A DNA stretch of 64,000 nucleotides from Hemiscyllium ocellatum (lineage: Eukaryota): positions 485,730 to 549,729 of the forward strand of contig NW_026867473.1 of assembly GCF_020745735.1 (NCBI RefSeq), written 5' to 3'. The first letter of the stretch is position 1, and every line of letters begins with the position of its first letter. Below the pieces are notes generated by a model. The model worked only from the letters and a program-made list of their open reading frames with translations, did not search any database and was not told where the DNA came from. Below, piece by piece: positions 29,539 through 56,399 of this stretch. Position numbers and translations under genes: made by a program.

Positions 29539-30756
29539 TGATATGGTTAATGTAATTTCTGCAGTTTCATGCATTCACACACACCTTACACACACACACA
29601 CACCTAACACACACACACACACACACACACACTCTACACACCTCACATACAGACACACACATACGCACACACACCTCTCTCACACATACNNNNNNNNNNN
29701 NNNNNNNNNNNNNNNNNNNNNNNNNNNNNNNNNNNNNNNNNNNNNNNNNNNNNNNNNNNNNNNNNNNNNNNNNNNNNNNNNNNNNNNNNNNNNNNNNNNN
29801 NNNNNNNNNNNNNNNNNNNNNNNNNNNNNNNNNNNNNNNNNNNNNNNNNNNNNNNNNNNNNNNNNNNNNNNNNNNNNNNNNNNNNNNNNNNNNNNNNNNN
29901 NNNNNNNNNNNNNNNNNNNNNNNNNNNNNNNNNNNNNNNNNNNNNNNNNNNNNNNNNNNNNNNNNNNNNNNNNNNNNNNNNNNNNNNNNNNNNNNNNNNN
30001 NNNNNNNNNNNNNNNNNNNNNNNNNNNNNNNNNNNNNNNNNNNNNNNGTAAGGTAATTTCTGTACTAGAACTGAGGTTTAATGAGTAAAGGCTAATTATG
30101 AGACTGATATTCAACTAGGCCATATGGGAACATGAACCAGAAGTCACCGCTGTTATGTCAGGAACATGGTAACCTTGGGCAAGATACCAAGGAATGCTTT
30201 AACTAGACACAGAGGGCAAAATACAATAGAAGCCCTTTTATGATATGCAGATAACCAAGAAATGCTTTAACCAGCAGAATTGTTAAAAACAATATAACAT
30301 TTAATTAAAGAATTGGCAGAGAAAAGCGTGAAATGTTTTAACCAATGGAATTGTCACTAATGTTTTCAAATGTAAGAATAATGTATAAATATTACTGCTG
30401 TAAAACCTTTCCGCGTGATTCTTCCTAAGTCCTTTTGGAAGACGTCCAAACTTGCAAGTTTGAATAAACATCCTTTGCTCCATTTGTGTGTCTCGCAGCA
30501 TTTCGATTTGCCACGGGAAAAGCGGTAGCCGGAGGGGATAAGGGCTGGTGCTGACAGCTTGGAGTTCGCCTCCTAGGACGGGACCTTGTGGATAGTCTCC
30601 CTTGAAGTCAAGGGTTAAAGGACAGTCCGCGGTCGGCAGAGTGTGGAGGCAGAACCCGGTTGATCTGAACCATAGCCCTAGTGTAGAGTAGTTAGCCGAG
30701 TGTCAGGGACTATTCTCCGGAAATTTAGAATACCTAGACAGAAGTCACTTATAACA
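29539..30756 (+). mobile_element. 3' LTR of the env-bearing ERV, interrupted by a (CA)n tract and an assembly gap
   Basis: Begins TGATAT after the PPT and ends ATAACA. CCAAT 30342-30346, TATAAAT 30384-30390 and AATAAA 30463-30468 lie in U3-R order. No matching 5' LTR is visible. Confidence 0.6.
29690..30047. other. Assembly gap (358 N)
   Basis: Run of N following a (CA)n microsatellite at ~29575-29689. Confidence 1.
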
Positions 30757-31320
30757 CCCTCCACCCCTGAAAACAAGGCCGTGAATCCCCACGGTCAGTT
30801 AGTTATTTACTTTTAGCTGTACTTTACCCTCCACACCTGAAAACATGTCCGTGAATCCCCGCAGTCAGTCAGTTATATACCTTTAGCTGTGCATTACCCT
30901 CCACCCCTGAAAACAAGACCGTGAATCCCCGGGGTCAGTTAGTTATTTACGTTTAACTGTATGTTACCCTCCATCCCTGAAAACAAGGCCGTGAATCCCC
31001 GCGGTCAGTTAGTTGTATACTTTTAGCTGTGCGTTACCCTCCATCTCTGAAAACAAGGCCGTGAATCCCCACGGTCAGTTAGTTATTTACTGTTAGCTGT
31101 ACTTTACCCTCCACCCCTGAAAACAAGGCCGTGAATCCCCACGGTCAGTTAGTTATTTACTTTTAGCTGTGCGTTACCCTCCATCTCTGAAAACAAGGTC
31201 AGTTAGTTATATATTTATAGCTCTGCTTCACCCTCTGTCCCTGAAAACAAGGCCGTGAATCCCCGCAGTCAGTTAGTTATATACTTACAGTTCTGCTCCA
31301 CCCTCTGCCCCTGAAAATAA
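30757..31320. repeat. 70-bp minisatellite (8 units plus a partial unit)
   Basis: Unit ccctccacccctgaaaacaaggccgtgaatccccacggtcagttagttatttacttttagctgtacttta starts at 30757, 30827, 30897, 30967, 31037, 31107, 31177 (16-nt deletion), 31231 and 31301 (partial). Confidence 0.95.
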
Positions 31321-31439
31321 GTAATAATAACACACTTCCCTATCAATATAATCTTCACCAGGACCTGTACACTTCCATGTATCTGTATAACCCCAGAACA
31401 CCACCTTATCATTGCAACCATGTCCAGATCACTCGTTTC

Positions 31440-36173: not shown

Positions 36174-37096
36174 CTGTAGACAAATCCTAGCCTCCAAATC
36201 ACAGCGACTATAAGATCAAAAAGGATGGCGTTAATCTCTCAATAGTTACCCACGTCAACCAACTGAATAATACTTTGTGAAGGTTTATAATTGGAAAATC
36301 TGTATTGTCCAGATGCTGTGAACATTAAATAAAAACAGAGACTGCTAGAAATACTCACTCATTTTCTCTGATGAAAGGTCATTGACCAGAAACATTCATT
36401 GTATTTCTCTCTCCACAGATGCTGTTTGATCTGCTGAGTATTTGCAGCACTTTCTGTTTTACATCATGTAGGTTCGCTCCATGTTCAGAATGCACACAAG
36501 TTATTTAATTAAAACAGATATTCCCATAGAGTTCAGGTTATGTATGATTGATATACGACAGAAATCTATTTGTACTTTACAATATTAAAGATACAATTAC
36601 AAACACAAATGTGGAGATAAACATTAAATATATGAACATAATCCATCAGGCATACAAAGAATAACAGAGATCAGAGTGCTGAGTGGTCTCACTTCATGTA
36701 CAATATCAAAGACTGGGAAACAAACTCAACATATTATATTTACAGGCTGGAATGTCCAGAGATTGAATAATTCCCATTGTCAATTTGAAAATCTTTAACT
36801 TTTGGATCAGGCTTATCCTTTTCCATAGCTATTTTAAAACTGATGTGGTAAGTGTTTGCCCACTAATATCTCAGTGACTTGCCCTGCCTTATTCCCCTAG
36901 AGGACATTAAATTTTGCCCCTTCTCTCGGAGGCCATCTACATATCGATTGAGAAGGTTTTCTTGAATAAATTTAATAAATTCCTCCCATCCATTACCAGT
37001 CTATGTTTGGAAAGTTAAGATCTCTTTCTATTATAACTTTATTATTCTTACAGCTATCAGCGACCTCCCTGCATATTTAGAACATAGACACATGGT

Positions 37097-37410
37097 GGGT
37101 GGTACGATATCTCAGTAGTTAGCACTGCTGCCTCACTGAGACTTGGGTTCTATTCCCACCTCAGGCGACTGTCTCTGTGGAGTTTGCACATTCTCCCCGT
37201 GTCTGTGTGTGTTTTCTCCGGGTGCTCCGGGTTCCTCCCACAGTCCAAAAATGTGCAGGCTAGGTGAATTGGCCATGCTAAATTGCCCGTAGTGTTAGGT
37301 GAAGGGGTAAAGGTAGAGGAATGGGTCTGAGTCGGTTGTGCTTCGGCTAGTCAGTGTGGACTTGTTGGGCCGAAGGGCCTGTTTCCACACTGTAAGCAAT
37401 CTCATCTAAT
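37097..37410 (+). mobile_element. HE1-type SINE
   Basis: Full head, body and tail ending gggccgaagggcctgtttccacactgtaagcaatctcatctaatc. Confidence 0.85.
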
Positions 37411-37414
37411 CAAA

Positions 37415-40400
37415 AAAAAAGTGCATCACAGAACAGGCCCTTAGACCACGATGTTGTGCCAAGATTTAATCCGAATGTAAAATATAGTAACTTAAACTAC
37501 GCACCCCTCAACTCACTGCTATCCATGTGCATGTCCAGCAGTCACTTAAATGTCCTCAATGACTTCGCCTCCACCACCTCAACTGGCAATGCATTCCATG
37601 TATTCACAACTCTCTGCATAAAGAACCAACCTCTAATGTCTCCTTTATACTTTCCTCTTAATATCTTCAAACTATGACTTCTCATACCAGTCAGTCATCA
37701 ATTTGCTCCTCAGTTTCCCGCTGACTCCTGGGGAATCTATGGTACGATCCCATCAAAGTGATCAAACTTTTCTTTTTTTCTCAGATCCATACACATTGTT
37801 TCACTGGGCGATCCATCAGGAACATCCTCTCTGAGTCCTGTTGTGATGTTTTCCCGAATCAAAATAGCCACTCCCCCTCTTCTCTTGCCTCCCCTTCCAT
37901 CTTTCTAATGAATAGATCATTGAGCTCGATTTTAGAGTATCTGATCTCACTACTTCTGATGAAGAGTCACTGGACTTGAAATATTAACTCTGTTTTCTCT
38001 CCACAGATGTTGCCAGACCTGCTAAGTTTCTCTAGCAATTGTGCCTGCGGTTTACCCAGCTTCAGCAGCAAGTCATAGAACATTGCAGGGCAGTACAGGC
38101 CCTTCGGCCCTTGATGTTGCGCCGACCTGTGGAACTAATCTGAAGCCTATTTATCTGACGCTAATCCATTTTCATCCATGTTTATCCAATGACCATACAA
38201 ATGCCCTTAAAGCTGGCGAGTCTACTACTGTTGCAGGCAGTGCATTCCAGGTCCCTATCCCGGAACTATCTCTGACATCTGTCTTACTCCTCAGTTTAAA
38301 GCTATGTCCCCTCGTGCTAGCCATCACCTTCCAGGAAAGAAAACTCTCACTATCCACCCTATCTAATCCTCTAATTATGTTATATGGCTCAATTAAGTTA
38401 CCTCTCAACCTTTTCTCTAATGAAAACAGCCTTTCCTCATAAGACCTTTCCCTCCATACCAGCCAACATCCTGGTAAATCTTCTGAATCCTTTCCAAAGC
38501 TTCCACATCCTGCCTGTAATGCGGTGACCAGAACAGTATGCAATACCCCAATGTAGCCACACCAGAGTTTTGTACAGCTGCAGCATTACCTCATGGCTCC
38601 GAAACTTAATCCCTCTACCAATAAAAGCTCACACACAATATGCCTTCTTAACAACCCTATCAACCTGGGTGGCAACTTTCAGGGATTATGTTCCAAGTTA
38701 GATCTTCATGCTCTTTCTTCTACTATGACTGTCATGTTAGGAAATTCCTAGTATTGGCCTTTTTTTGGTTTTAATGACATCACTGTCCTGTTTGAAGCCA
38801 TCCCCAGATGCTATCTCCCTCCTCCCCACTTTCAGGTTGTGGTTGAAGAAATATGTGCAGCTGTCTGGGCTTTTATTTCCAAATACCTTATCTTAATGGT
38901 CATAGTAACAATGGGACACAGTTCCCCAATACAGTGTTTATGTTCTGATCTATCTTCTCTCAATGCAGATCTTTGATCTAAGGTAAATTTCTACTTCAAT
39001 ACCACGGAGGGTGGTGTGTGTATTGAATGAGCTGCCAGAGGAAGTGGTGGAGGCTGGTACAATTACAGCATTTAAGAAGTACCTGGATGATGCCCGAGAC
39101 AAATCTTTCACATTGGTCTTCACCACATCAGATTTATATTCATGAAAATGGAATAAATCACAAACATAGTGACGTGATTCACTGTGATTAAAGTAATAAT
39201 ACAATAAGCAATGCATTGGATTATCATGGTTTGTGTATGTGAATTAGTGTGCGAATGTGCATAGGCAACATTAATCATCTTGCACTACTTTGACACCCCT
39301 ATCATTTTCATAGTTATCTTTTTGGTCTTAATCAACAGATAAAACATTTCTTTTCCTGTCGATTTTACCCATTAACAATTTCTCTGTACTTCCTTGGCAT
39401 TTCTAAGTTTTTTTTAGTTTTCAGTTCACCCATTTAGATTCTAGGCTAAGCTTCCCATCGTTTTTGAATTGTTTTGTCAGGATCAGTATCTTTCTTTTAC
39501 TGTGTTAAAAATCACACAACACCAGGTTATAGTCCAACAGGTTTAATTGGAAGCACACTAGCTTTCGGAGCGATGCTCATTCATCAGGTGAACAACCTGG
39601 TGTTGTGTGATTTTTTAACTTTGTACAACCCAGTCCAACACTGGCATCTCCAAATCATGACTTTCTTTTACTGTTTCATGTCACCCCGTATGCTTGGGGA
39701 CACCGATGGAGCACGAGATGTGGAAATATCATGTTATCTGTTGTTGTCTCATGTTTACGCTGTTTCTTTAGAATCTCACTTTTGAGATCCTCCCACTGAT
39801 TTGTCATTACTTTATCTTCAAATACCTGCATCCAGTCCAACTTCATCAGATTATCTCTCAAATTAAGAACATAGAAACGTACAGCACAGAACAGGCCCTT
39901 TGTCCCAAGATGTTGTGCCGAAGATTAATCCTAATTTCAAATAAGAAAACTAACCTACACACCCCTCAATTCACTGTTGTCCACGTACAAGTCCAGCATT
40001 CACTTCAATGTCTGTAATGAATCTGCTTTCACCACCACCTCTGGCAATGTATTCTGTGCGCTCACAACGCCCTGCGTAAGGAACCTAACTCTGACGTCTC
40101 CTCTATACCTTCCTCCTAACACCTTAAAACTATGACCCCTCGTGGCAGACTCATGAGATTTGTTCCCCCAGACATCAACATTTTAATCTTGTTGTATTTG
40201 TCTTGTTCCATATTTATGCTCAATGTAAATGTATTAATGTCAGCAGCTCAAAAATAGTCCCTCTCTCTTAGTTCATTCAGAAGATCAGCTTCATTTCAGA
40301 AGATCAGTTCCTGAATTGCTTTTCCTCTCACTGAGCCCTTATGTACTAAAGAGGTCAGTTAAATATGATACAATAATCTTTTTGCTCTGTGTCTTTCACA

Positions 40401-41840
40401 CTGTTCATATTGCGAGATATTTGAGAGATGAAATTCCCAAATACTCTAGTACTTCAAAATATTCAAAAATGTCTGACATACAACTCTTCCGTTTTCCTCA
40501 GAAGATTTGGTCATCACTTGTAAACTACTAGCAGTGTGGCTGCCACCTTTTTAAAAATATTTCAGCTGAACCCTTATCGCGTCTTTTGTAAATTCATTGA
40601 GTGTATCAATGAGGGCCCTGTTAACCAGAGTGGAGGAGGAGAAACAGTTGAGGATAAAGGGATGCATAGAGTCACAGAGATGTCCAGGATGGAAACAAAC
40701 CCTTAATTCCAATTTGTCCATGTTGACCAGATGTCCTGAACGCATCTAGTCGCATTTGCTAGCATTTGTCTCATATCCCTCTAAACTCTTGCTAAACATA
40801 GACCCATCCAGATGCCTTTTACGTGTATTTACATGAGCACCGCTCCCCCAGCGACCCCCTTCCCCCCCCCCCCACTCACCCCCGACTTTCTCTGGCAACT
40901 CATTCCATACACGCAACAACTTGTGTGAAAAAGTTGCTCTTTCGGTCCCTTTTAAACCTTTTCCCTCTCGACTATGCCTTCCAGTTTTCAACTCCCCTAC
41001 GCTGGGGAAAGGATCTTGGCTATTCACCATATCCACGCCTCTCATGATTTTATAAACCTCGATAAGGTCACCCCACCGCCCCCACCCCAGTCTCCAAGCT
41101 CCAGGCAAAATAGCCCCACTTGCAAGGAACTATGAATCATTCTTTTGCTAATTATCTTAGTTGTGTTCTCTATTAATGATCTCCCTGTCAGTCTAAAGAG
41201 AGACAGTAATTGCTTCCAGCACAAGGGAGGGAGAAGCTCATATTAGATACACGCTGGTGGAAGGTGACATCGATTCATAGGGTGGTACAACATGGTACAA
41301 CTTGTCCATGCTGACCAGATGTCATAAATTAATCTAGTCCATTTGCCAGCATTAGCACCAAATCCCTCTCAACCCTTCCTAATCATATACACATTCAGAT
41401 GGCATTTAAATGTTGCAATTGTACCAGCCTCCACCACCTCCTCTAGCAGCTCATTCCATACACACATCAACCTCTCCATGAAAAAGTTGTCCCTTAGGTC
41501 CCTTTTAAATGTTTCCCCTCAAACCATAAATCTATACACTCCAGTTCTGGACTCCCCCACTCCAGGGTAAGTACCTTGTCTATTTACCCTATCCAGGCCC
41601 CTCAGGATTTTATAAATCTCAATAAGGTCACTCCTCAGCCTCTGATGGTCCAGGGAAAACAGCTCCAGCCTATTCAGCCTCTCCCTTTCACTCCAACCAC
41701 CAACTCTGGCAATACCCTTCTAAATCTTTTCTGAACTCTTTCAAGTTTCACAATATTCTTCCTATAGCAGAGAGACCAGAATTGAATGTGGTATTCAAAA
41801 ATGGACTAACCAATGTCCTGTACAGCCACACCATGACCTC
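37415..41840 (-). mobile_element. Cluster of CR1 3' fragments (about 37415-37690, 38072-38690, 39865-40150, 40665-41125, 41270-41840) with Penelope-like pieces
   Basis: Repeated acagaacaggccc / catagaac tails and RT C-terminal homology on the minus strand. The last fragment continues at 51224 beyond the provirus. Confidence 0.7.
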
Positions 41841-42500
41841 TGTTGGGGTAGTTGTACTAGTGGGGTGGGCACACTGGATCTAGGGAGGGAAAAAACTATA
41901 ACTGTAACAAGTGCTTCTAATACCGGGCCTGAAATGGTTAAACTATCATGATTACTGAACTGGAAACTGCTGGCCTGGCCTCCTAATCTGATCAGAGGCT
42001 AGCTGATAGACAGCCTGTTAATTGTACCTCTGGAATTTGTAACCGGTAGACATTGCTAATTGGATTAGTTGAGCTGTCGATTGAACCATCGAAACTACTC
42101 ACTTAAATGGTAATGAACTATTGTTTCTGGTAAACCACTAATTGAATAAGCAGGACCAGTGGCCCCACAATGTCTACGGGACTGGTCGCTCCAAGGCAAA
42201 CGGACAGACAGTTCAAACCAGAGAGCGGAACGCTTTGCCCGGGAACAAGTAGCCAACAGGAAGGTCAGACGTGGACACCTGACCTGGAGCACTGGCCAGC
42301 GAGGGGTATAACTGGGGCGAAGTTGAGCAGAGGGGCAGAACGCCTTCTCCAACGAATTGCATGCTGTAGAATTCGTTGTATAGTTTGCCAGTCGTGATTC
42401 TGTAAAATAAACGGTGCTCTGCCTCAAAATAAAGAAGCTGGTGCGGTCTCTCCTTCCAAAGAACTCACAAAGACCGGAATCCCGAGATTCCGGCCTAACA
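41841..42500 (+). repeat. 5' LTR (660 bp)
   Basis: TGTT...AACA termini; TATAA 42307-42311; AATAAA 42406-42411. Confidence 0.97.
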
Positions 42501-42502
42501 TC

Positions 42503-42520
42503 TGGTGAGCCTGACGTGGG
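42503..42520 (+). promoter_or_regulatory. Primer-binding site, closest to tRNA-Trp
   Basis: TGGTGAGCCTGACGTGGG, 2 nt after the LTR; 14/18 match to the vertebrate tRNA-Trp PBS TGGTGACCCCGACGTGAT as recalled. A leader splice donor AAG|GTGAGG lies at 42596/42597. Confidence 0.6.
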
Positions 42521-43771
42521 AAGGGAAAGAGACCACGGCAAGTTGGCCACGTTGGCGGATCAGGGGGCAGACAACTTTCGGCCGAAACCTTCTAAGGTGA
42601 GGAAGCGCCTGTTAAACCTAAGGCTTCCAGTAGTTAGTTAGTCTCTTGTCTGCTCTCTGACCCTCACCAACCCAAAAAACTGATCAGTTTGGCAGCAGCA
42701 TCGCAGAATCCTGACTGGTAAGCTACCACTAACCTTTTAACTAGTACCGGTTCGAATTCGCGTTGCTTTCGGAGCTGAGCGCGCCCCTTGTTGCCAGTTT
42801 GATTCGCGTTGCTTTCGGAGCTGAGCGTGCCCCTTGTTGCCAGTTTGATTCGCGTTGCTTTTGGAGCCAAGCGCGTCCCTGAGATTATGTATTGCAGCGC
42901 TGACCGTACTTGACTGCTTGGATCCACGTTACAAAGCACTTAAGACCGACGAATCTTGCTATACACACTTGCTGCTAGCATCTACCAAACCCCGGGGTGA
43001 CAGAGGTCGGATCTCATCATCTGAACAGGGTTATCCGCACAGGCGTCTGCCTTAGACCGGTTGTTAAGAGCAGAGATCTGCCACGCGAAGGTCAGGCTTT
43101 GAAAGATGCTCTGTTTTTATCACGGTTCCCATCAGGGGAGATCCGACATGGGGGACCTGATCTCAGACCGCCGAGGCTGTAACGCCTCGGAGCATGTTAC
43201 TAAGACAGAGGGCAGGGGACTGCGACAGGCTGAGATGGGGATACAGAGACACCAACAGTATGCGTGGTTTGGCATGTATGTGGGTGACAACCAGTGTGGG
43301 GCCGGCCCAGTGAGAGAGAAAGAGTGAGTGCTGTGACTTTGACGGACATGGCGAACGGGAGTGTTGCAGGAACACTTACTCCCAGGTCTGGACCTGCTAG
43401 ACCGCGTCGGCAGCGAGGCATCGGGGTGCAGCGGACCTGCACCGGCAGCCTCTGAGAGAGAGAGAGCGTGGAAAGCTGTCCAGCAAACAGGAGCAGATTT
43501 GCAGCTCTGTGAGTATGTGAGTTTTGTTCCGTGGATTTAACGGACTGGGACTTATCTCTGTGGACTCACATTGATTTTTAGGGTTAATGACTTCTGTCCT
43601 CTCAACTTTGTGTACTGCCCCACTATCATTTTTAATTACTCTTTACTTGAAAAGGTAGGGATGCGTACAGAAAGGTGACAGAATCAGGGATGGTGGAGCA
43701 CTTAATTGTCGGACCATTACGGTTGGCCGTCCCAAGGCGGTAAATCCCGGGGTGTCCCGGGGTCAGCTTGG

Positions 43772-44090
43772 TTTTTAGATTAGATTAGATTACTTACAGT
43801 GTGGAAACAGGCCCTTCGGCCCAACAAGTCCACACCGACCCGCCGAAGCGCAACCCACCCATACCCCTACATTTACCCCTTACCTAACACTACGGGCAAT
43901 TTAGCATGGCCAATTCACCTGACCTGCACATCTTTGGACTGTGGGAGGAAACCGGAGCACCCGGAGGAAACCCACGCAGACACGGGGAGAACGTGCAAAC
44001 TCCACACAGTCAGTCGCCTGAGTCGGGAATTGAACCCGGGTCTCAGGCGCTGTGAGGCAGCAGTGCTAACCACTGTGCCACCGTGCCACC
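43772..44090 (-). mobile_element. HE1-type SINE nested inside the provirus
   Basis: Apparently little-decayed, CpG-retaining copy: ttagattagattagattacttacagtgtggaaacaggccc...gcagtgctaaccactgtgccaccgtgccacc. Confidence 0.92.
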
Positions 44091-45519
44091 CACGGTGGCA
44101 CAGTGGGTGGTTCTGGCGGGTCAACTTACTTTTGGCGGGTTTGCTCAGTTTTGGCGCGAATGCTCAGTCTGGGCGGGGTCCGTTTAGTTTTGGCGCGAAT
44201 GCTCACTCTCGGCGGGATTGCTCGCTCTGGGAGGGGCTACTCGTTATCAGGGGTCTACGACCCTAACATCAGAGAGACACTCAGGCGCGATTGTCCTGGT
44301 CCATGGGATAATCCAATGGGAAGGTCTTCTTAAATTATCATGATGACGACATGAATCATGCTTCTAACTATATCTTATTCGAAAGTTGTACCCTTTTTTA
44401 CTTTTAAACAGAAAATACCGACCAACAACATGCACAGTGCAGCATTACCATACGGTGGCACAGAGGCCACTACTACTCACCCCCTTTAAAGTGGTTTTCA
44501 TGCGACCGCTGTTTGCCCGGCATTACCGAAGCCGGCATTAGGCTCTGACATCCCCCAGCCCACTTGTTTTTGCCTATTCCTTTTTTCCCGGTGGCCGCAG
44601 ATCTCAGGTCTCCAACCAGGACCTGCGACTCAGCAGACAGTAAAGGGTTTGGCCTAGCTCATTCATCTTTTTCCTCGCGACCAGTCACTCATCTTTTGTC
44701 CGCCGACATGGCTGCTTAAGCCATTTTTTCCACTTTCATGCTCACAGATTCTTTAATGACGAGATGGGGGCACTCATTCATCTTTCCGCCTATGTCCTCC
44801 AATTTTTACTGACCTATCTTACACACCCATTTCATCCTCTCTCAGATCCACAGATTTTCCCTTATACTAAAGTGTTATGCGCGCTCATTCATCGTCTCAT
44901 TACAATTACATGCGCGCTCTTTTCGTCTTTTTACGAGTATATGCGCACTTATTTCGTACTATTATTCGTCCTCCTCCTAAAGGCTGGGGCTAGGGAGGGT
45001 AGTGCCATTGCTGCAACAGACACTGCCAGTTCCAGTCCCCAAACGGTTATTCACAGCCATGCAGGGGGCAGCTAGCAACAGCAGGGCTACCTGTCTGAAG
45101 CTACATTCTTTGATAATTAGATCATGGAGCCTGTAACTGCCACCCAGTATCAAATTGTCCCATTGAAATCTCATTCCGACTTCTATTGCCGCATGTAGTG
45201 CCCCATCCTACACCCCCGCTCACCCTTTATTTCCACTCGATGTTCTCTTTCGGATCTGAGGTTATTTCTATCGTCATTTTCTATCTTTCACTCATCTTGT
45301 TAAACCGTTGAATTTAACTGGTGTCCGCAGACTTGACATTCCGCTGGTCCCCGAGTCTCACCCCCTTTTTGAGGTCTTATACTCCCTGAGGTTTCCTACC
45401 AGGTCGCAGTAACTCCTCTTCTGGCCTCATCCCTCCATCAAAAACTCTTCACTCACTGTGCTCCTGCTGCTGTACTCTGCGTCTCATCCCCTTTTCCCAG
45501 AATTACGCTCCCTGAGGTT

Positions 45520-47720
45520 TGCTACCAGGATTCGTTACATGACCTCCGAAGAATAAACGGGGCCACAGTCACTTCAAATCTGAAGGTTCTGGACCCCGCT
45601 GTTGCACTGCAGGCGCTCACGCCTGCCTGTCATTTTTCTCTGTCACAGACCTGGCCGACGTTTTCTTTTGCCTTTCCGCTGCACCGACAGTGTCCGGAGC
45701 GTTTTTGCATTCACCTGTGCTTGAAAGCGCCATACATACAATCGCCTCCCACAGGGGTAGAGAACTTTGGCTTCGTCCTTATCATTCCCCTACTGTCCGC
45801 GGCCCCTGTTGCTGCCCTGCAGAGTTCACAAGCCCCGACGGGGGTACACCCCCTCGCAGCATAAAACGACACTCTAATAGTCACGGGAGCCCACATCCAG
45901 GGCGAACTTGTGCAGGGGGGTGTAAGCTCACCTCCCCGCCTGACACTACCCCCTCAGAGGACGAGGGTGAGATCCTGCAGGGTTTGTGCAGTTATTCTTC
46001 TTGTCAATACGTTATGCTTATCTTTACACTTTCTTTCATGTTCCTACAATAGACCCTTTTACCGGGCTTGGGACGTCTGGGTCGCTACGCTTTCCTGCTA
46101 CCAGATTCTGACCACTAGATTTGATTTTATACCTACTTGTCTGTATCTTAGGCGGTCATGGTGGCCATGCTCTGTTCTCACCCATTTGTCCCTGACTGAC
46201 AACAACTTTTGTCTGCAGCATAGGGATCGAAGCTCACCCCTTGCCCATATCCTTCAGTCTCTTCAACTGCGAGTAGTTGTTTCCAATTCACCTGTTCATA
46301 CCTTCTGCAAAGCGCAGATTCGCGCTGAAAACGGCAGGGTCACCAGGTTCTTTTATGATTCTTTTCCCTGGGTAACTCTTAAGGCCTCCTACTATCTACA
46401 AACTTTGCCTTACACAGAGGACAGTGCTACACAAAGGATTTCTGTCCTGACCTGTATAGATTGTACTCACAACTTGTTACCCGTGTCATTCACCATGTGC
46501 CCGAACTACATGATTACTCCTCTTTTTCTGGCCGGTAGGCAATGGACTGTATTCCTCTACCAGGTAATACCTCCTATTTCCTGCAGAGCATGACCTCAAA
46601 CCTCCCTTTTTCCATCTCAACTGCACTCCACCTGAAATATTCCACCTCCTGTAAATCAGTCGCTGCATTGGTAGTCCGCATGCGATTGCTGGATGTTGAT
46701 GCAGCAAACTCTCTTGTGAAATTCCATCATTCTCTATACTCCTCGTCACAATCTAAACAAAAAACATGTGTTTTCCCGGCGGTCTACCCCCACCTCGGAG
46801 TGCAGGTCGGGGAAACACTGCTTTTCACCCGCTAGTAAATTTCACTTGATTCACCCAGCCCGGACGGCTTACCCGGGGATACTCACGGGCAGCCAAGCGG
46901 CAGCATTAACGGTGAGTCACGCAGATTTGTGGTGAAATTGTGGGGGGCAGATTGGGTACAATTGGTTGCCCCTGAACTGGGAAGGGACTTGTGTTCTGCG
47001 CGCCCTCAGTATTCCACTCTTCGTCTCTGCACATAGGAGCTGACATCCTCTGCGGATTAGGACACTCTACTCATACCCTTCTTACGGGAGTATTCAATGG
47101 CATGTTACATGCATCTCAACTTACGTATTTTTTACTCTTACTATTCTCTGGCTTTTATCACGTTAAATAAGCTACAAGGATACCAGAAGCTTCCCTGTGA
47201 AGATCATGTTACACATCCATAAATATCACAGTCAAAAGGGGGGTGCAAGCTCTAGCTGACAACACTCACACATCCACTCACTAACAATCAGATGATTTCG
47301 AGCTAGAACAGTGTTAACCTCCATGCTAGCTGAGCAGCCCTTTGTGGCTCTCACTCTCTGTTTCACACAGATACGACGTCCGATATGCCCGCAGCACCTG
47401 TGCACTCTCTTTTGATTATGACACACGGCCCTTCACAAACACAGATTCTTGCATACACAAGGATTATACTTGCACCTCTCGTTCTGTATCTCGTTCGGGG
47501 GGACAAGGCCCCTCAGGCAAACGGTCCAATTTCGTCCCACCGCAAATCTCCTAATTGCCCAGAGTTTTACATTACTCACCAGGGTCCCCGTGACAAAGGC
47601 CCCCTCTCCATAATCATCATCATCCCTTATACTGAACGAGCTGAAAACACATGGGGCAACGCATGTGAGAGTTGCCCAAGGCAGTAAGTCCGTTCACAAC
47701 CGCTGGTGGGCCCCTGTCTG
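45520..47720 (+). pseudogene. pol: Fossil retroviral pol (RT and integrase remnants)
   Basis: HDLRRIN (45538-45558), FSVTDLADVFFCL (45636-45674) and FAFTCA*KRHTYNRLPQG* (45704-45760) lie in three different frames. QYVML sits where (Q)YVDDL is expected (~46007-46021). Integrase N-terminus HGATH...NRWWAP at 47650-47715. Confidence 0.8.
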
Positions 47721-50555
47721 CGGTAACATATGGAAAACTTGGTGCAGGGTCTGAACGGAGGATGACAATAACTGGCACCACTTCCTGTTGCCACGGGTCA
47801 CCATACTGCAGCAAAGCCGACCCTGTATGTTCGTGATCTCTCACCCGACAACTTTCTGGTTTGTCATTTACATGGTGTACATGCTGCAGTTGTTACAGTT
47901 CCTGCGCGATGCGTGGTGCATTCACCCATGTCCAGCCCATCTGAACTGATTACCTACTTTATATTCCTCCTGTTTTTCGGTTTGCCTCCTAAGGGAGTAA
48001 CCTGCGCATACGACAATCTGTTTTAATCACCTGTGGTGACAGTGGACATAGTTTGCCTTCCCCTATACGGTGTACTATTTCTCCCCTTTTAACTGTTGCC
48101 AATCCTTTGACCCCCTCTAGGGGGTCACCCTATTTTTTTCGGTAGAGCTCTTGGCCGGATATTTTTACTTTTCAACATTGGTTATTTCATGTCCATGACG
48201 ACGTTTTTGCGCCTGCAGCTGCTAGTGCAGATGCACAGCAAGTTATAACCGAGACTTGTACTATCTTGCATTTTCATCATTGTCCCGGAATTTATCTGCC
48301 CTGTATAGTGCTATTTCCCAATTGGCCGCAGCCTTTCCTACTGAATGTCTTCCACAGCCTGCGCACGTTTGCTTTTTACCTTTTTTCTGATTAAGAAATG
48401 CTACTACTTAGTATCTTTTTGCGTGACTGCTTTTCCGCAGTTACCTCTCCCAATACTGAATCAGTGGGGTGGTTGCATTTTTTCGCTTTTTTCTGACTCT
48501 TTCAAAATAAGACGAACAATTCCCCTACAGGATGATCTATTTCCCCCTGTTTCAATTGCCTTTTGTGGCAGCCAGTGGTCAGGGACCTTTCTTCTCTCTG
48601 ATTGGAGTTCACAAATTGCCCTGCACTCCTTTGTACAAGGTACTATTTCTTCCTTTATACGGAACCACTCTTTTTACCTCACACTGGGATCACTCTACTC
48701 TTTAGGTGACAGCTTCGTATAGATCCTTGGGCTGTGAGAAAGGTTAGGAGTTAGGCCTACCTTCACTTTTTTTCTCTCTCTCATTGTCTTGGTTGATATC
48801 TGGTTTTTCCAGTTCGGTTGCACAACTGGGTGGGGGGGGCAATCTTAGTGAATGCATTGGACATTTCGCACTGGCCCCCTCTTTCTTTTACTAGATGACT
48901 AAAGACTTCACATCCAGGAGTACTGGCATGGTGATGTCCGTTGAGTCTAATAGCAAGGAGCTTTTCAAGATCAGCTCACCCAATGGCTCCGCCTTCACAG
49001 GACTGTCCTAATGGCGGTTGTTAAATACAATGCTTTCATTTCCCATACTAGTAGGATGTTTTCTGGCTGATTTCACCAAATGTCACCCTGGGGATGGCAG
49101 GACACCTTTCACCACACTTCTGCAGCCCCATCTCCCTGGTTTAAATGTAATGTGGTATCATTACTTTTCAATCAAACCCCCCCCCCCATACGCTGGGCTC
49201 TGCACTCCTCAACAGATGCCTGCGCCTCCACCAACTCTGAGTACACGACAGCCTGCGTGTGATCTCCTACAAACGGGGAGGGACATATGGAATACATGCT
49301 GTAAGGTGACTTCCACTCATGAACCATGTAGCCGGTTTTCCGTGCGGCTGGTTGCACTACGTGACTGATGCCTCCCAATGGGAAGCCAGGCGAGTGGGGA
49401 TCTGGCGGTTATTCTCTCCAATCATGCACTACCACCTCTGAATGGGCTACGGGTGCAGGCGTACTAAATACTATCTCTCCGGTGCATGTCAGCGGTCTCA
49501 ACGTCTTTCTTTCGAGTTCATCCGATCGTGTCGCCCACGGTGGTGCGCTACGGTTTTGCTCTTGATGCTACTCAGTACTAGCTTTTCTCCTTTATGAACA
49601 ATGAATGTGGTCTGGTTGTCCAAAGAGTCCCTACTTATTTTGCCCATTTGACCTGGGGATAGGTGAATTGATCCTTTCATACAGTGGGGGGTTGAGATGT
49701 ACTGTGTGCCCAGGACTCGAACCACTGCTGTTTCAAACACACTATTGAGCCGGTTGCCACTGCCTGTGTCCGTTTTTGACGGCGATGAAACGGATGTCAG
49801 TATCTACAACTCAATGCAGTACGACTGGTTAGCCAATGACGGGTACGATCCCTCGGGTGAGGGACAACCTAAGACAGGCACAGTCGCGCTTTGACATCGG
49901 AACTGGTGGCCCACGTTCGTCATGATTTAATAAGTTCTCTGGCCTCTGTCTTCCATGTCGGACGTCTGGACGGAGCTGCTGGCCTGTGGAGCATTCTGAT
50001 CTGCGGGAACACCGGTGCACAGTACACTTTCTCACCGGGTTTCCGCTCGCTAGCACATACCTAACTGCTGCTAGTGTTCTAATTCACAATTCACAGAACA
50101 TGTTTACACTTGGGTGCTCTTTGGACTACAGACCTGCGTTCTGCAGACATCTTACTTATTTCAATTCCTCCACTCCAAATCTCTTAAGACTGTTATGTAC
50201 TCGCGTACAGTGCTCTGTTTGTCTTTTTGCCATGTTTTTGCCATGCTTGATTAATTCTGTGCTTTTGTCCTTTCCGCAGAAGTCTGCCGGAGTTGTTTTA
50301 TCTATTAACTTAGATTTGCATGTAGTTTTAATTATCTATTTGTAAATTGTGTTGCGGCGTGTTGCGCAGGGCACCCTTCATCCCAACATAACTGTCTCCC
50401 TAGAACCGGTGATTCTGGTCAAGACAACGTGCTCGGGTATGACAAAGGGACGTCTGTGGGGGCGTCTGCCGGCACACCAGATCCCGGTCACCTCGTGGTG
50501 TTGCGTTTCTTACGGCATGGGATGGTGTGGCCTCAGTAGAGGCCAAGGGAGGGAA

Positions 50556-51223
50556 TGTTGGGGTAGTTGTACTAGTGGGGTGGGCACACTGGATCTAGGG
50601 AGGGAAAAAACTATAACTGTAACAAGTGCTTCTAATACCGGGCCTGAAATGGTTAAACTATCATGATTATTGAACTGGAAACTGCTGGCCTGGCCTCCTA
50701 ATCTGATCAGAGGCTAGCTGATAGACAGCCTGTTAATTGTACCTCTGGAATTTGTAACTGGTAGACATTGCTAATTGGATTAGTTGAGCTGTCGATTGAA
50801 CCATCGAAACTACTCACTTAAATGGTAATGAACTATTGTTTCTGGTAAACCACTAATTGAATAAGCAGGACCAGTGGCCCCACAATGTCTACGGGACTGG
50901 TCGCTCCGAGGCAAACGGACAGACAGTTCAAACCATCCAACCAGAGAGCGGAACGCTTTGCCCGGGAACGAGTAGCCAACAGGAAGGTCAGACGTGGACA
51001 CCTGACCTGGAGCACTGGCCAGCGAGGGGTATAACTGGGGTGAAGTTGAGCAGAGGGGCAGAACGCCTTCTCCAACGAATTGCATGCTGTAGAATTCGTT
51101 GTATAGTTTGCCAGTCGTGATTCTGTAAAATAAACGGTGCTCTGCCTCAAACTAAAGAAGCTGGTGCGGTCTCTCCTTCCAAAGAACTCGCAAAGACCGG
51201 AATCCCGAGATTCCGGCCTAACA
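50556..51223 (+). repeat. 3' LTR (668 bp)
   Basis: Differs from the 5' LTR by 7 substitutions and one 8-bp indel in my hand alignment; preceded by the PPT aagggagggaa (50545-50555). Confidence 0.97.
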
Positions 51224-53220
51224 CCTCCCAACTTCTCATCATTGCACTGACCAATAAACGAAAGCATACCAAATGTTTTCTTCACTATCCTGTCAACCTG
51301 CAACTCCACTTTCAAGGAACTATGAACCTGCACTCCAAGGTCTATTTGTTTAGGGACACACTCCAGCACTTTACCATTAAGTGTATAAGTCCTGCTCTGA
51401 TTTGCCTTTCCAAAACACACTACCTCCATTTATCTAAACTCCGTCTGCCATTCCTCAGCCTATTGGCCCATTTGATCAAAGTCCCACTTTACTCTGAGGT
51501 GACTTTGTTCACTATCCACTGCACCTACAAATTTGTAGTTATTGTAAACTGACTGAACACATCTCCTATATTCACATCCAAATCATTTATATAAATGACA
51601 AAAGGTAGTGGACCCAACACCAATCCCTGTGGCGCACTGCTCATCACAGGCCTCCAGTCTGAAAAACAACCCTCCACTACCTCTGTCTTCCACCTTCAAG
51701 ACAGTTCTGTATCCAAATGGCTTCTTCCTGTATTCCATGTGAACTCACTGTGCTAACCAGGAGGAACCTTGTCAAACACCTTACTGAAGTTCATATAGAA
51801 CATGTCCACTGCTCTGTACTGAGTGATCCTCTTCATTACTTCTTAAATAACTCAATCAAATAGGTAAGATATGATTTTCCACACACAAAGCCATATTGAC
51901 TATCCCTAATCAGTCCTTGCCTTTCCAAACATATGTAAATCCTGTCCTTCAGGATTCCTTCCAGCAACTCGCTCACCTCCAATGTCAGGCTTATTGGTCT
52001 ATAGTTTCCCAGCTTTTCCTTACCACCTTTCTTAAATACTAACACCACATTAGACAGTCTTCCGGCACCTCACCTGGAGCTTTGATGATACATTTATCTC
52101 AACAAGGGGCCCAGCAATCACTTCGCTAGATTCTCACAGACGTCTAGGGTACACTTGACCAGGTCCTGGAGAGTTGTCCACTTTTAAGGATTTTAAGTCA
52201 TCTAGCACTTCCTCCTCTGTAATATGGACATGTTTCAAGATATTCGACGTTTCGGGCATAAAGCCCTTCTTCAGGAATGAGCCCTGAAGAAGGGTTTATG
52301 CCCGAAACGTCGAATCTCCTGTTCCTTGGATGCTGCCTGACCTGCTGGCTTTTCAAGCAACACATTTTCAGCTCTGATCTCCAGCATCTGCAGACCTCAC
52401 TTTCTCCTCCATGTTTCAAGATATCACTAGTTATTTCCCATGTTCTATATTTTCCATGTTCCTTTTCACAGTAAACACTGATGCTAAACATTAATTTATT
52501 ATCTCCCCCTTCTCTCGTGGTTCCCCACATAGGCTGTCTTGCTGAGCTTTGAGGAGCCCTATTGTCTCCCTGGTTACCCTTTTGTGCTTAATATATTTGT
52601 AAAGCCCCTTTGGATTTTCCTTAACCCTATTTGCCAAAGCTATCTCATGTTCCCTTTATGTCCTCCTGATTTTCCTCTTAAATATAATTCTATAAGCCGT
52701 TATGCTCTTCTAAGGACTCACCCGATCTCTGCCGTTTATGTCTGATATCTGCTTCCTTCTTTTTCTTGACTAGAACCTCTATTTCTCGAGTCATTTAGCA
52801 TTTCCTCCACCTACCACCTTGCCCTACACCCTCACAGGAACATACCTTCTCTGGAGTTCCATTATTTCATTTTTGAAGGCATCCTATTTTCCAGCCATCC
52901 CTTTACCTGCAAACATCTGTCCCAACCCAAACAACTTTTGAAAGTTCTTGCCTAATACCATCAAAATTGGCCTTCCTCCAATTTAGAACTTTAATCTTTA
53001 GATCAGGTCAGTGCTTTTCCATCACTATTTTAAAACTAATAGAATTATGCTCATTTGCCCCAAAGTGCTCCCCTACTGACACCACAGTCATCTCAGAATG
53101 CCTTATTTCCCAAAAAGACATCATGTTTTACACCTTCTCTACTCGGTATATCCACACACTGAATCAGAAAATTTTCTTGTGCACACTTAAGAATTTCCTT
53201 TCCATCCAAGCCCATACTGT
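51224..53220 (-). mobile_element. CR1 LINE fragment (RT to endonuclease), continuation of 41270-41840
   Basis: ORF 51836-52048 (minus): FKKGGKEKLGNYRPISLT...SQYGFVCGKSYLTYLIELF; split by the provirus and by a Penelope-like insert. Confidence 0.8.
52244..52409. mobile_element. Short Penelope-like insertion with two opposed hammerhead cores
   Basis: 15-bp TSD CATGTTTCAAGATAT (52229-52243, 52410-52424); cores at 52246-52274 (minus) and 52284-52311 (plus). Confidence 0.8.
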
Positions 53221-55860
53221 TCAATTTATCAAATGTACATTATTCTAAGGCATTGGTTTTCACATTCAAAACCCAGACTACAATTTACCCACTTATGATA
53301 GACCCATTTGATTTGAGTTCCATTGAATCCAGAGAACACGTAGACATCTACTCTTCCATATAGACAATGAAACTTGTTCTGATCCCCAACTGATGGTAAT
53401 ACTGGACCAGAATCAAACCTGGCTTGATGGATCATAGGTTTAATTTTCTGTTGCTAAGTTAGTTAATGTGGTGGTTAGTCACTGAGGCAGATTTGATCCG
53501 ACTGGATTTATCCATTCCTTTTTGGGAAGGACATACTATATGGTCACTGTTAGTGTCAGGGTCAATACTATAGATGAATAGGGTCAACAGCTTCACTTCA
53601 ATACCTGAGGGCAGACTTGATAACATATGAAGATTATGCCATGATCTTGAGAACTGCTAACATTTTTAGAGGTGCAAGGGTCTTAATTGAAATGTAAAGG
53701 TAGTGAGGATTGAGTAGATGGTGATAATCCTGTCATCAAACAGTTTGGATCAGGTGAGAGTTGGTGACAGCCTGTTTGAGTGCTCATACTGTCCCTTGGT
53801 TGGCTGTTGGTTCAGAGCCATCATCAGCTGACGATCACCAGGTGATGGTCAGAATACCCGTGTGCAGCATGATGCACCGAATGGCCTCCTGCTGCATTAT
53901 GCCAATTCTGTGATTCTGTTTTCCTCATTGTTTGGGTGTACACGTGTTTCAACACCGTATCAAAATTGAGATTGGGAATTCAGTAACAATCAATCACAAT
54001 ATCTGAACATGTTCCATTGTTTTAACTCACTGTGTTCTGTTGTACTGTGTAGTTTCTCCCCCATACCCACTCAAGCTCACTTCACTCTCATTGACAAGAC
54101 CCATCCCGGCTATTCAACTTGGAAAAGAATGATTTGCATTGATAGAATATCTGTCACAATGATAGGTCTTTTCAAACTGCTTTATGGTCAATGAATCCCT
54201 CCAACGTATAGTTGCAGTAGGAAATGTGACATTGAGTGTTCACAAACACAATGGGGTAATGACCAAATCACCAGTTTCTGCATTAATACCTGGGAGTAAA
54301 TATTGAACAGAACTCCGGGATGACATCCCCACTCTTCATCCCAGGCTGTAAAAGGAACAGGATGTGAACATAGGAGATGGCTCATTGTGAACTTCCAGTC
54401 TTCACTTGATTCAGGGAGGATGCTACAGAATCAGACATTTCCAATCCTTGCTCAAAAAGATGTGAGCTCAGTCCTCGTAATGGTAGGCCAGTCAGTTTAA
54501 TGTCAGTGAGGAGGCAGGTTTTGTAAGTAATAATCTGGGCAAAAATTGATAAACACTGGGATATTTCTAGTTCATCACAGAGCCAAGACACATTGTAAAA
54601 GGCGGCTTGTGCTTCACTAATTTAATGGAATTTTTGGATGAAGTAACAGTGAAGGTTGATGAAGGGAATATGTTGGATGCTGTTTTGGAAAACATTTGAC
54701 AAAAATGCCACATAAAAGGCTCCTGACAATGTTGAAGTTCATAAAGTAGGACAGTCGGTATTAGTTTGGATGAAATCATTGGCTACAGGACTGAACAGCA
54801 ATATTACATCTTTCCTGTTGTTCATTGACCATAACTATGTTCCGTACTCCAGCTGTAGCCTAATCTATCAATAAAACTCCAATGCTTCAGCTAGTAAGAA
54901 AATGTATGATTTTGTGACCACTGTATAATCCTCCCACTCACCTTCAAGGAATTGTGGACATTCACTCCAAGGTCCTGTCTTTCATTATGTCGCTCTCTGT
55001 TCCCAGTTCAGTGTATTGTCACACTGTCTGTCTCCCTGTGTTCACCGGTCAGTGTATTATCTCTCCATCTTTCTTTCTTCCCAGTTGTGTGTTCTCTGCT
55101 TGTCTCTCACTTTTTCCAGTTGTCTCTGTTTTTCTCTCTTTCTGTTCCCAGTTCAGTATGTTGTATCTCTGTCTTTCACTATTGCCAGTTCAGTGTATTA
55201 TCACACTTTCTGTCCTCTCTATTCTCAGTTCAGTGTTTTATCTCTCTGTTTCTCTCTATTTTTAGTTGTATGCTCTCTATTTCTCTCTTTCTCCACTCCC
55301 AGTTCAGTGTTTTGTCAGTTTATCTTACTGTATTATCAGTTCAATGTGTTGTCTCTTTGTCTTTCTCCATTTCCAATTCACTGTGGGTGTCTCTCAATCT
55401 CTATTCCCAGTTCAGGGTGTTCTCTATCTCTCTCTATTGCCAGTGCTGTCACTCCCTGTTCCAGTTCAGTGTGTTGTCTCTCTGTCTCTCTTAACTCCAA
55501 GTTGTGTGTTCTCAATTTGTCTCTCACCTCTCCCAGTTCAATGCATTCTCTGTTCTCTCTCTCCATTCCCAGTTCATTGTGATGTTAGCTTATCTCCTTC
55601 TATTGCCAGTTCAATATGTTATCATTTTTTGTCAATGTTGTCTGTCTATCTCTCACTATTCCCAATTCAGTGTCTTGTTACCCTGTTTCCTTCTTTTCCC
55701 AGTTCAGAGTGTTGTATCTCTGTTGCTATTGCCAGTTCTGTGGTGTTACTCCATTCTCTCTCTGCATTCCCAATGCAGTGAGATGTCTCTCTGTCTCCCA
55801 TTTTCAAGTTCATTGTGTTGCCACTCTGTCTCTCTCTAATCCCAAATCACTGTCTCTCAT

Positions 55861-55932
55861 TACCTGGTGGTCTAGTGGTTAGGATTCGGTGCTTTCACCA
55901 TCGTGGCCTGGGTTCGATTCCCAGTCAGGGAA
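55861..55932 (+). tRNA. tRNA-Glu(TTC), probably a CpG-eroded pseudogene
   Basis: TACCTGGTGGTCTAGTGGTTAGGATTCGGTGCTTTCACCATCGTGGCCTGGGTTCGATTCCCAGTCAGGGAA, 72 nt; anticodon TTC at 55894-55896; intact A and B boxes; no encoded CCA; a T-run terminator follows at ~55946-55955. A2:G mismatch in the acceptor stem. Confidence 0.85.
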
Positions 55933-55955
55933 CGAGTGCGTTTAATTTTTTTTTT

Positions 55956-56225
55956 GGGTGGCACGGTAGCTCAGTAGTTAGCACCGCTGCCTCACAGCGT
56001 CAGAGACCCGGGTTCAATTCCCGCCTCAGACAACTGTCCCTGTGTCAGCGTGGGTTTCCTCCGGGTGCTCCGGTTTTCTCCCACAATAGGTGAATTGGCC
56101 TGTAGTGTTAGGTGAAGGGGTAAATGTAGGGGAATGGTTCTGGGTTGGTTGCTCTTCAGAGGGTCGGTGTGGACTTGTTGGGCTGAAGGGCCAGTTTTCA
56201 CACTGTTAGTAATGTAATCTAATCA
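55956..56225 (+). mobile_element. HE1-type SINE with internal deletions
   Basis: gggtggcacggtagctcagtagttagcaccgctgcctcacagcg...ggacttgttgggctgaagggccagttttcacactgt...atctaatc. Confidence 0.85.
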
Positions 56226-56399
56226 TTACGTCTCTATTTCCAATTCAGTGTGTTGTCTCTTTCTGTCTCTAATCCCAGTTCACTGTCTTGTCACTGTCTC
56301 TCCCCATTCCCAAGGCAATATCTTGTCACTCTTTCTCCCCATTCCCAGTTTAATTTGCTCCCTCACGATCTATTTCTACTGCCAGTTCATTCTGATGTC

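Follow-up and report, generated by a model that had tools for sequence, protein, structure and literature searches.

The MaLR, LARD, Morgane and MER4-group elements are non-autonomous LTR elements without pol function. MaLR elements are of class III (ERV-L) origin, with 5-bp duplications and neither pol nor env, and LARD and Morgane are plant elements, LARD having a long non-coding interior with conserved RNA structure. The mouse VL30 elements are described in PMC4859993 as non-autonomous, with intact primer-binding site (PBS) and polypurine tract (PPT), 4-bp duplications and stop-filled gag and pol remnants; in that account 42 of 86 have identical LTRs, and they are complemented in trans, probably by an MLV-type reverse transcriptase (RT). 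In the koala, the Phascolarctos endogenous retroelement (PhER) is reported as an 8-kb element bounded by direct terminal repeats; it has a site for tRNA priming, resembles env to a limited extent and is unable to code for protein (PMC5696478). A further account gives about 30-40 full-length copies (PMC6112702). Among cartilaginous fish, whose ERVs have been extensively catalogued, env-bearing ERVs have been reported from six species (bioRxiv 2021.11.23.469661), and the supplements of that work may hold the family of the element described here.

This element occupies positions 41841-51223 on the plus strand of the window (the whole 64-kb stretch of DNA that was analysed) and is a retrovirus-derived sequence of 9.4 kb with nearly identical ends and a non-coding interior. 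It is probably a class I retrovirus-derived copy with broken genes, belonging to a non-autonomous family that spread by means of the proteins of a related intact retrovirus. This reading is based on cis signals that are intact, a 4-bp duplication of the integrase type, RT and env in broken form, the failure to detect RNase H, integrase or gag, an interior that has kept its CpGs, and the similar interiors found in public contigs. Like VL30, the element combines intact cis signals and a 4-bp duplication with broken coding remnants; unlike VL30 (4.1-6.3 kb, without env), it is 9.4 kb long and bears an env remnant. It resembles PhER, by description alone, in near-proviral length, terminal repeats, a priming-site-like sequence, an env remnant and the lack of coding capacity, and differs from it in its unrelated host and its recognisable RT remnant. 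Its features, in window coordinates, are as follows.

41837..41840, plus strand: left target-site duplication CCTC, 4 bp; same four bases at 51224-51227
41841..42500, plus strand: 5' LTR, 660 bp, TG...CA
42503..42520, plus strand: PBS-like sequence starting with TGG, 2 nt past the 5' LTR
42756..42880, plus strand: leader tandem repeat, unit of about 46 bp, close to three copies
43772..44093, minus strand: SINE within the interior, 322 bp, 87% like the copy at 37095-37417
45302..45885, plus strand: front half of a class I RT, broken, with at least three frameshifts and three stops
45865..46593, plus strand: open frame of 242 codons, the longest of the interior, in phase with the env remnant
46882..47025, plus strand: remnant of the env SU end, with one stop; 48% identity to the Env of a ray ERV along 50 aa
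47026..50544, plus strand: 3.5 kb without significant protein match; TM-like and integrase-like motifs at chance level only
49921..50099, plus strand: 179 bp present in the window and skipped by contigs of runs X2, X9 and X10
50545..50555, plus strand: polypurine tract, 11 nt of pure purine, abutting the 3' LTR
50556..51223, plus strand: 3' LTR, 668 bp, TG...CA
51224..51227, plus strand: right target-site duplication CCTC
51228..51800, minus strand: host LINE split by the insertion, resuming left of 41837 (right flank: RVT_1, E 0.018)

With its direct LTRs, target duplication, PBS-like site and PPT, this is an integrated LTR retroelement. The 5' LTR contains TATAA at 42307 and AATAAA at 42406 and 42428, and the PBS-like site is presumably tRNA-Trp-like, a putative assignment. 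A previous sequence-only reading of this DNA had reported LTRs of 660 and 668 bp that differ by seven substitutions (five at CpG sites) and one 8-bp indel, a perfect 4-bp CCTC duplication, a PBS and a PPT; the LTR figures were re-derived identically, the duplication is present at 41837-41840 and 51224-51227, and the PBS-like site begins at 42503 and the purine tract spans 50545-50555. That reading had overlooked the env remnant and the SINE inside the element. Both flanks match one other LINE copy in the window, roughly in register, and appear from this match to be a single minus-strand LINE, which we take to be CR1-like. The strict empty-site motif had no match within the 64-kb window.

The two LTRs diverge by 1.06%; of the seven substitutions five are CpG-type and two are not, so that the differences are CpG-biased, and there are no 1-bp indels. 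At the shark rate assumed in PMC4422223, this divergence corresponds to about 24 Myr, or to 7 Myr when non-CpG sites only are used, and with the rate of 7e-10 per generation given for the epaulette shark (PMC10587355) it corresponds to millions of generations. The recent insertion claimed from the roughly 1% divergence is thus right as to the figure and right as to youth only in relative terms, the age under the assumed shark rate being about 7-24 Myr; it is by sequence divergence only that the insertion counts as young. In a host with a slow clock, LTRs that are 1% apart may be millions of years old, so the insertion may be fixed.

The interior tells a different age, since in a single element the decay of open frames and the identity of LTRs can yield very different ages. 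For the 352-bp RT core, 0.27 indels would be expected from the LTR clock, and at least three have a probability of 0.003; with the LTR indel rate set to its upper bound this becomes 0.19, and as that rate rests on one event, the frameshift excess alone is not decisive. The interior has a CpG observed/expected ratio of 0.63 and the LTRs have 0.59-0.61, compared with 0.30 for the remainder of the window and 0.18-0.26 for the interrupted LINE (six 1-kb windows inside vs 53 outside, Mann-Whitney p 7e-6). In methylated DNA, a sequence old enough to lose its genes should lose its CpGs first. The retained CpGs therefore argue against an alternative that we consider quite improbable, in which a single old insertion decayed in place, its LTRs were homogenised by gene conversion, and the copies in organisms B and C (below) are orthologues.

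In agreement with the claim that no long open frame is left, the longest frame of the interior has 242 codons, a length reached in 1 of 200 base shuffles and in 7 of 300 Markov-1 simulations. The plus strand holds somewhat fewer stops than the simulations (207 vs 228 +/- 12). Pfam returned chance matches only, with a retroviral family in none of six whole interior frames and none of 30 pieces of 200 codons, and likewise chance matches only in three leader frames. Neither Rfam (41000-52000) nor PDB sequence searches with the element-encoded sequence gave a match or anything relevant, respectively. The 242-codon frame had no usable match in a protein atlas search; possibly it is decayed env SU, although the similarity is not significant.

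Two protein remnants of the interior, and no others, stand up statistically: the front half of RT and the SU end of env. The first was recovered by a frameshift-aware aligner, with references taken from L003, the record of an intact retrovirus, and from 68 related Pols. It scored 116 with the best single Pol protein (shuffles 38-70) and 147 with a profile built from 35 of the 68 (25 shuffles gave 54 at most); its identity to the best eight references is 35-41%, with 3-4 frameshifts, and it has stops at 45722, 45758 and 45862. A 61-bp internal duplication, 75% alike, was also observed within it (45343-45403 and 45469-45529). The second came from a HMMER search of one frame (45499-49098) against 1.84 billion proteins, which gave two matches at E <=0.001, both to 46882-47025, the better being a TLV_coat-bearing Env of Narcine bancroftii (P0001, XP_069755174.1; E 9e-5). 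A word-index protein search with the env region gave none at E 10, and there were no env relatives among viral contigs.

Signals for the RT thumb, RNase H, integrase and gag were at shuffle level in the interior by frameshift-aware alignment, so an autonomous provirus with open gag and a pol of RT, RNase H and integrase is not what the locus contains. Of the pol motifs said to be scattered over several frames, the RT remnant stands above chance and the integrase-like and RNase H-like motifs do not. The integrase zinc-finger motif seen by eye at 47644-47760 had its score reached by 52 of 100 shuffles (4 of 60 for the best single reference), the integrase core motif at 49667-49905, also by eye, by 37 of 100 (1 of 60), and the RNase H-like motif was equalled in 18 of 100. 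Neither a putative second env near 49.2-50.4 kb nor the TM motifs between 47.15 and 47.4 kb rose above shuffle level, and for gag, 3 of 22 tests beat all 40 shuffles, with low scores and in inconsistent places. On the Pol profile, 1 of 43 interior pieces of 150 bp scored >=55, vs 17 of 27 from unchanged L003 pol, a contrast that is overstated to an unquantified degree because the reference set, which is without close cartilaginous-fish relatives, gave L003 closer relatives in the profile and so favoured it. The RT-to-env spacing is 1125 bp vs about 3670 expected, and 3520 bp lie 3' of the env piece vs about 840, from which it follows that about 2.5 kb of pol is missing and that a similar length of unassigned sequence is found at the 3' end.

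As to its class, the RT remnant had its top scores among the 68 Pol proteins (100-116) with ERV-type Pols of birds, bats and snakes, compared with 62 for the L003-like Pol, 38-60 for Gypsy-like ones and 38-70 for shuffles; by these scores it is closest to class I RTs. The env SU-end remnant matches a TLV_coat-bearing, gamma-type Env, its TM part not being significant. Genus-level affinity is limited by the 35-41% identity to the nearest references, in a set that holds no close cartilaginous-fish Pol. Judged by these similarities, the element appears to be a class I (gamma/epsilon-like) ERV derivative. MaLR/LARD-like behaviour had been proposed for it, for which VL30 and PhER prove the better comparisons: unlike MaLR, LARD and Morgane as generally characterised, it is class I-like, and its 4-bp duplication and its class I RT and env remnants set it apart from MaLR in duplication length and RT class. 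With cis signals intact and no coding capacity it is probably a non-autonomous ERV of the VL30/PhER kind; by this comparison it would be a member of neither VL30 nor PhER that works like both.

Further copies are visible in other sequencing runs: 10 of 13 listed runs, from three organisms (A, B and C), contain 14-37% of the element's words. No RNA run is among those listed as containing it, which says nothing about expression. Contigs of four runs (X1, X2, X9 and X10, covering the three organisms) were compared over 44150-51800 and covered 30 of 30 bins in X1, X2 and X9 and 27 of 30 in X10. Interior contigs match the window at about 96-98% in all three organisms; among the matches listed, long interior contigs are 2.2-3.7% from the window and LTR contigs 3.4%, figures that leave out one shallow X1 and one shallow X2 contig. 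Because interior and LTR diverge equally between copies, decay would predate their split. An assembly artefact, with collapsed LTRs or read errors that break the frames, would fit an indel at 49177, which is common to all four runs and lies in a C homopolymer, so that some window-only indels may be errors; it is nevertheless barely credible, as the contigs of four independent runs reproduce the interior and the LTR differences show the CpG bias and absence of 1-bp indels described above.

The main interior contigs have depths of about 220-370 (X1) and 670-1130 (X2), and most listed unique LINE-variant joints 14-29 (X1) and 45-110 (X2). Organism A thus shows about ten times the depth of unique LINE variants, which hints at several copies only, depth being no copy number. 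In organisms B and C the depth is 4-6, compatible with one copy. The latter figure fits the single old insertion with converted LTRs, as does the equal divergence of LTR and interior between organisms; against it are the depth in organism A, far above the level of unique sequence, and the 3.4% LTR distance to B and C, which exceeds the 1.06% within the pair and needs conversion or paralogy. Copies 3% away, with an LTR pair 1% apart, would not be orthologues unless conversion has acted, and are likely to be separate insertions. The depth in organism A could also reflect segmental or tandem duplication of one decayed provirus, with no retrotransposition, and the flanks of the other copies are indeed not visible, their loose ends being swamped by LINE. 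We hold this to be very improbable, because it leaves young LTRs around a CpG-rich decayed interior unexplained and because LTR bins are deeper than interior bins.

Whether the copies share their coding breaks bears on a further alternative. In the stop just after the LPQG motif of RT, the X2 contig of depth 666 and X9 agree with the window at the final base, where one shallow X1 contig differs; at the env stop no difference appears among those listed, though flanking differences in the same contigs do. Near-identical copies with the same breaks had been proposed as a check, and the interiors are in line with it at 96-98% in four runs, the shared break being shown, among the differences listed, at one base. 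The run contigs depart from the window by about 42 small indels and the 179-bp piece, with some of the indels common to A, B and C, and several contigs run on with 50-200 letters missing from the window near 46.85, 47.79, 48.77 and 49.73 kb. Since several contigs carry sequence without a window counterpart, the window copy is not the family's typical form, and the family may hold more pol than it does. It is therefore conceivable, though unlikely, that the family is less dead than this copy, others keeping more pol or an open env and the window copy being further deleted and riddled with indels. The small indels, the at least four run-on points, the longest open frame lying in frame with the env remnant, and the shallow, more divergent contigs at 45.17-45.44 kb favour this; yet the shared interior, 96-98% identical, is without RT thumb, RNase H or integrase signal, and among the differences listed there are some that flank the env stop and none at the stop itself.

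Trans-copying of a non-autonomous family is accordingly the reading we prefer. The earlier claim that decay is older than the insertion, from which copying in trans would follow, finds two independent supports, in the CpG retention of the interior and in near-identical non-coding interiors from four runs and three organisms, namely deep contigs 96-98% alike in A and presence in B and C, with flanks not visible. In an ancestor, some 2.5 kb of pol would have been deleted from between RT and env, after which the interior would have drifted free of coding constraint over many cycles of copying, with selection on the cis signals only. RNA transcribed from the LTR would be packaged and reverse-transcribed by a related intact ERV and integrated through the LTR ends, and the window copy would have landed in the LINE long after its interior had decayed. 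Helper packaging has been shown for VL30, whereas here the helper is inferred. Neither a helper nor a second insertion site turned up in the window or run contigs, and the LTR-PBS junction was absent from metagenome contigs. The Narcine bancroftii Env is full-length (676 aa), and its match of about 50 aa at 48% marks a relative and no candidate helper.

The mechanism is already known from VL30 and PhER, and the family itself is apparently undescribed in the literature searched, where no description of it was found (Repbase and Dfam lay outside that search). The claim of a large derivative at near-proviral length holds at 9.4 kb, but such length is not new, PhER having 8 kb. Parasitism of retroviruses of the VL30/PhER type would extend to a likely cartilaginous-fish host. 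As Pfam finds nothing in the interior, ERV screens seeded with Pol or Env would mostly miss such elements.

Several signals near the 3' end may concern related families. At 49846, the depth exceeds the main interior level about 50-fold in X1 and X2 and about 20-fold in X9, so that a piece of roughly 100 bp (about 49800-49900), far deeper than the remaining interior in A and B and without a protein match, is likely to be shared with a much more abundant family. An X10 contig matches to 50563, eight bases into the 3' LTR, and continues with 255 letters of other sequence, possibly the same interior with a different LTR. Two joints near the PPT, one skipping 161 bp (50140-50302; X9 and X10) at 4-10 times the interior depth and one skipping 47 bp (50426-50474; X1 and X2), point to putative sister families. 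The sense strand at 44100-50555 is A-poor (A 0.21, AT skew -0.17), with a similar skew in the right flank; for comparison, L003 pol and env have A of 0.32-0.34 and AT skew of about +0.2. The different-LTR contig, the deep piece at about 49.85 kb and the A-poor strand hint at a long-lived retroviral satellite lineage in cartilaginous fish, whose near-full-length, CpG-rich, A-poor RNA would outlive its genes, swap LTRs and helpers, and share interior modules with more abundant sister families, a speculative and rather unlikely proposal.

The SINE at 43772-44093 has 5.1 CpG per 100 bp vs 2.5-3.3 in four other copies in the window and so looks younger than these; its 5' end carries a short inverted repeat (44070-44106). 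It is putatively HE1-like. A table in PMC3747384 gives sharks and rays as the host range of HE1. Together with the match of the env remnant to a ray Env, this makes a cartilaginous fish the likely host. Elsewhere, the window holds a 70-bp tandem array (30686-31321), a degenerate array of 35-37-bp repeats (54976-56382) and an ARAGORN tRNA-Glu call (55861-55933) that adjoins a SINE copy and may be SINE-related.
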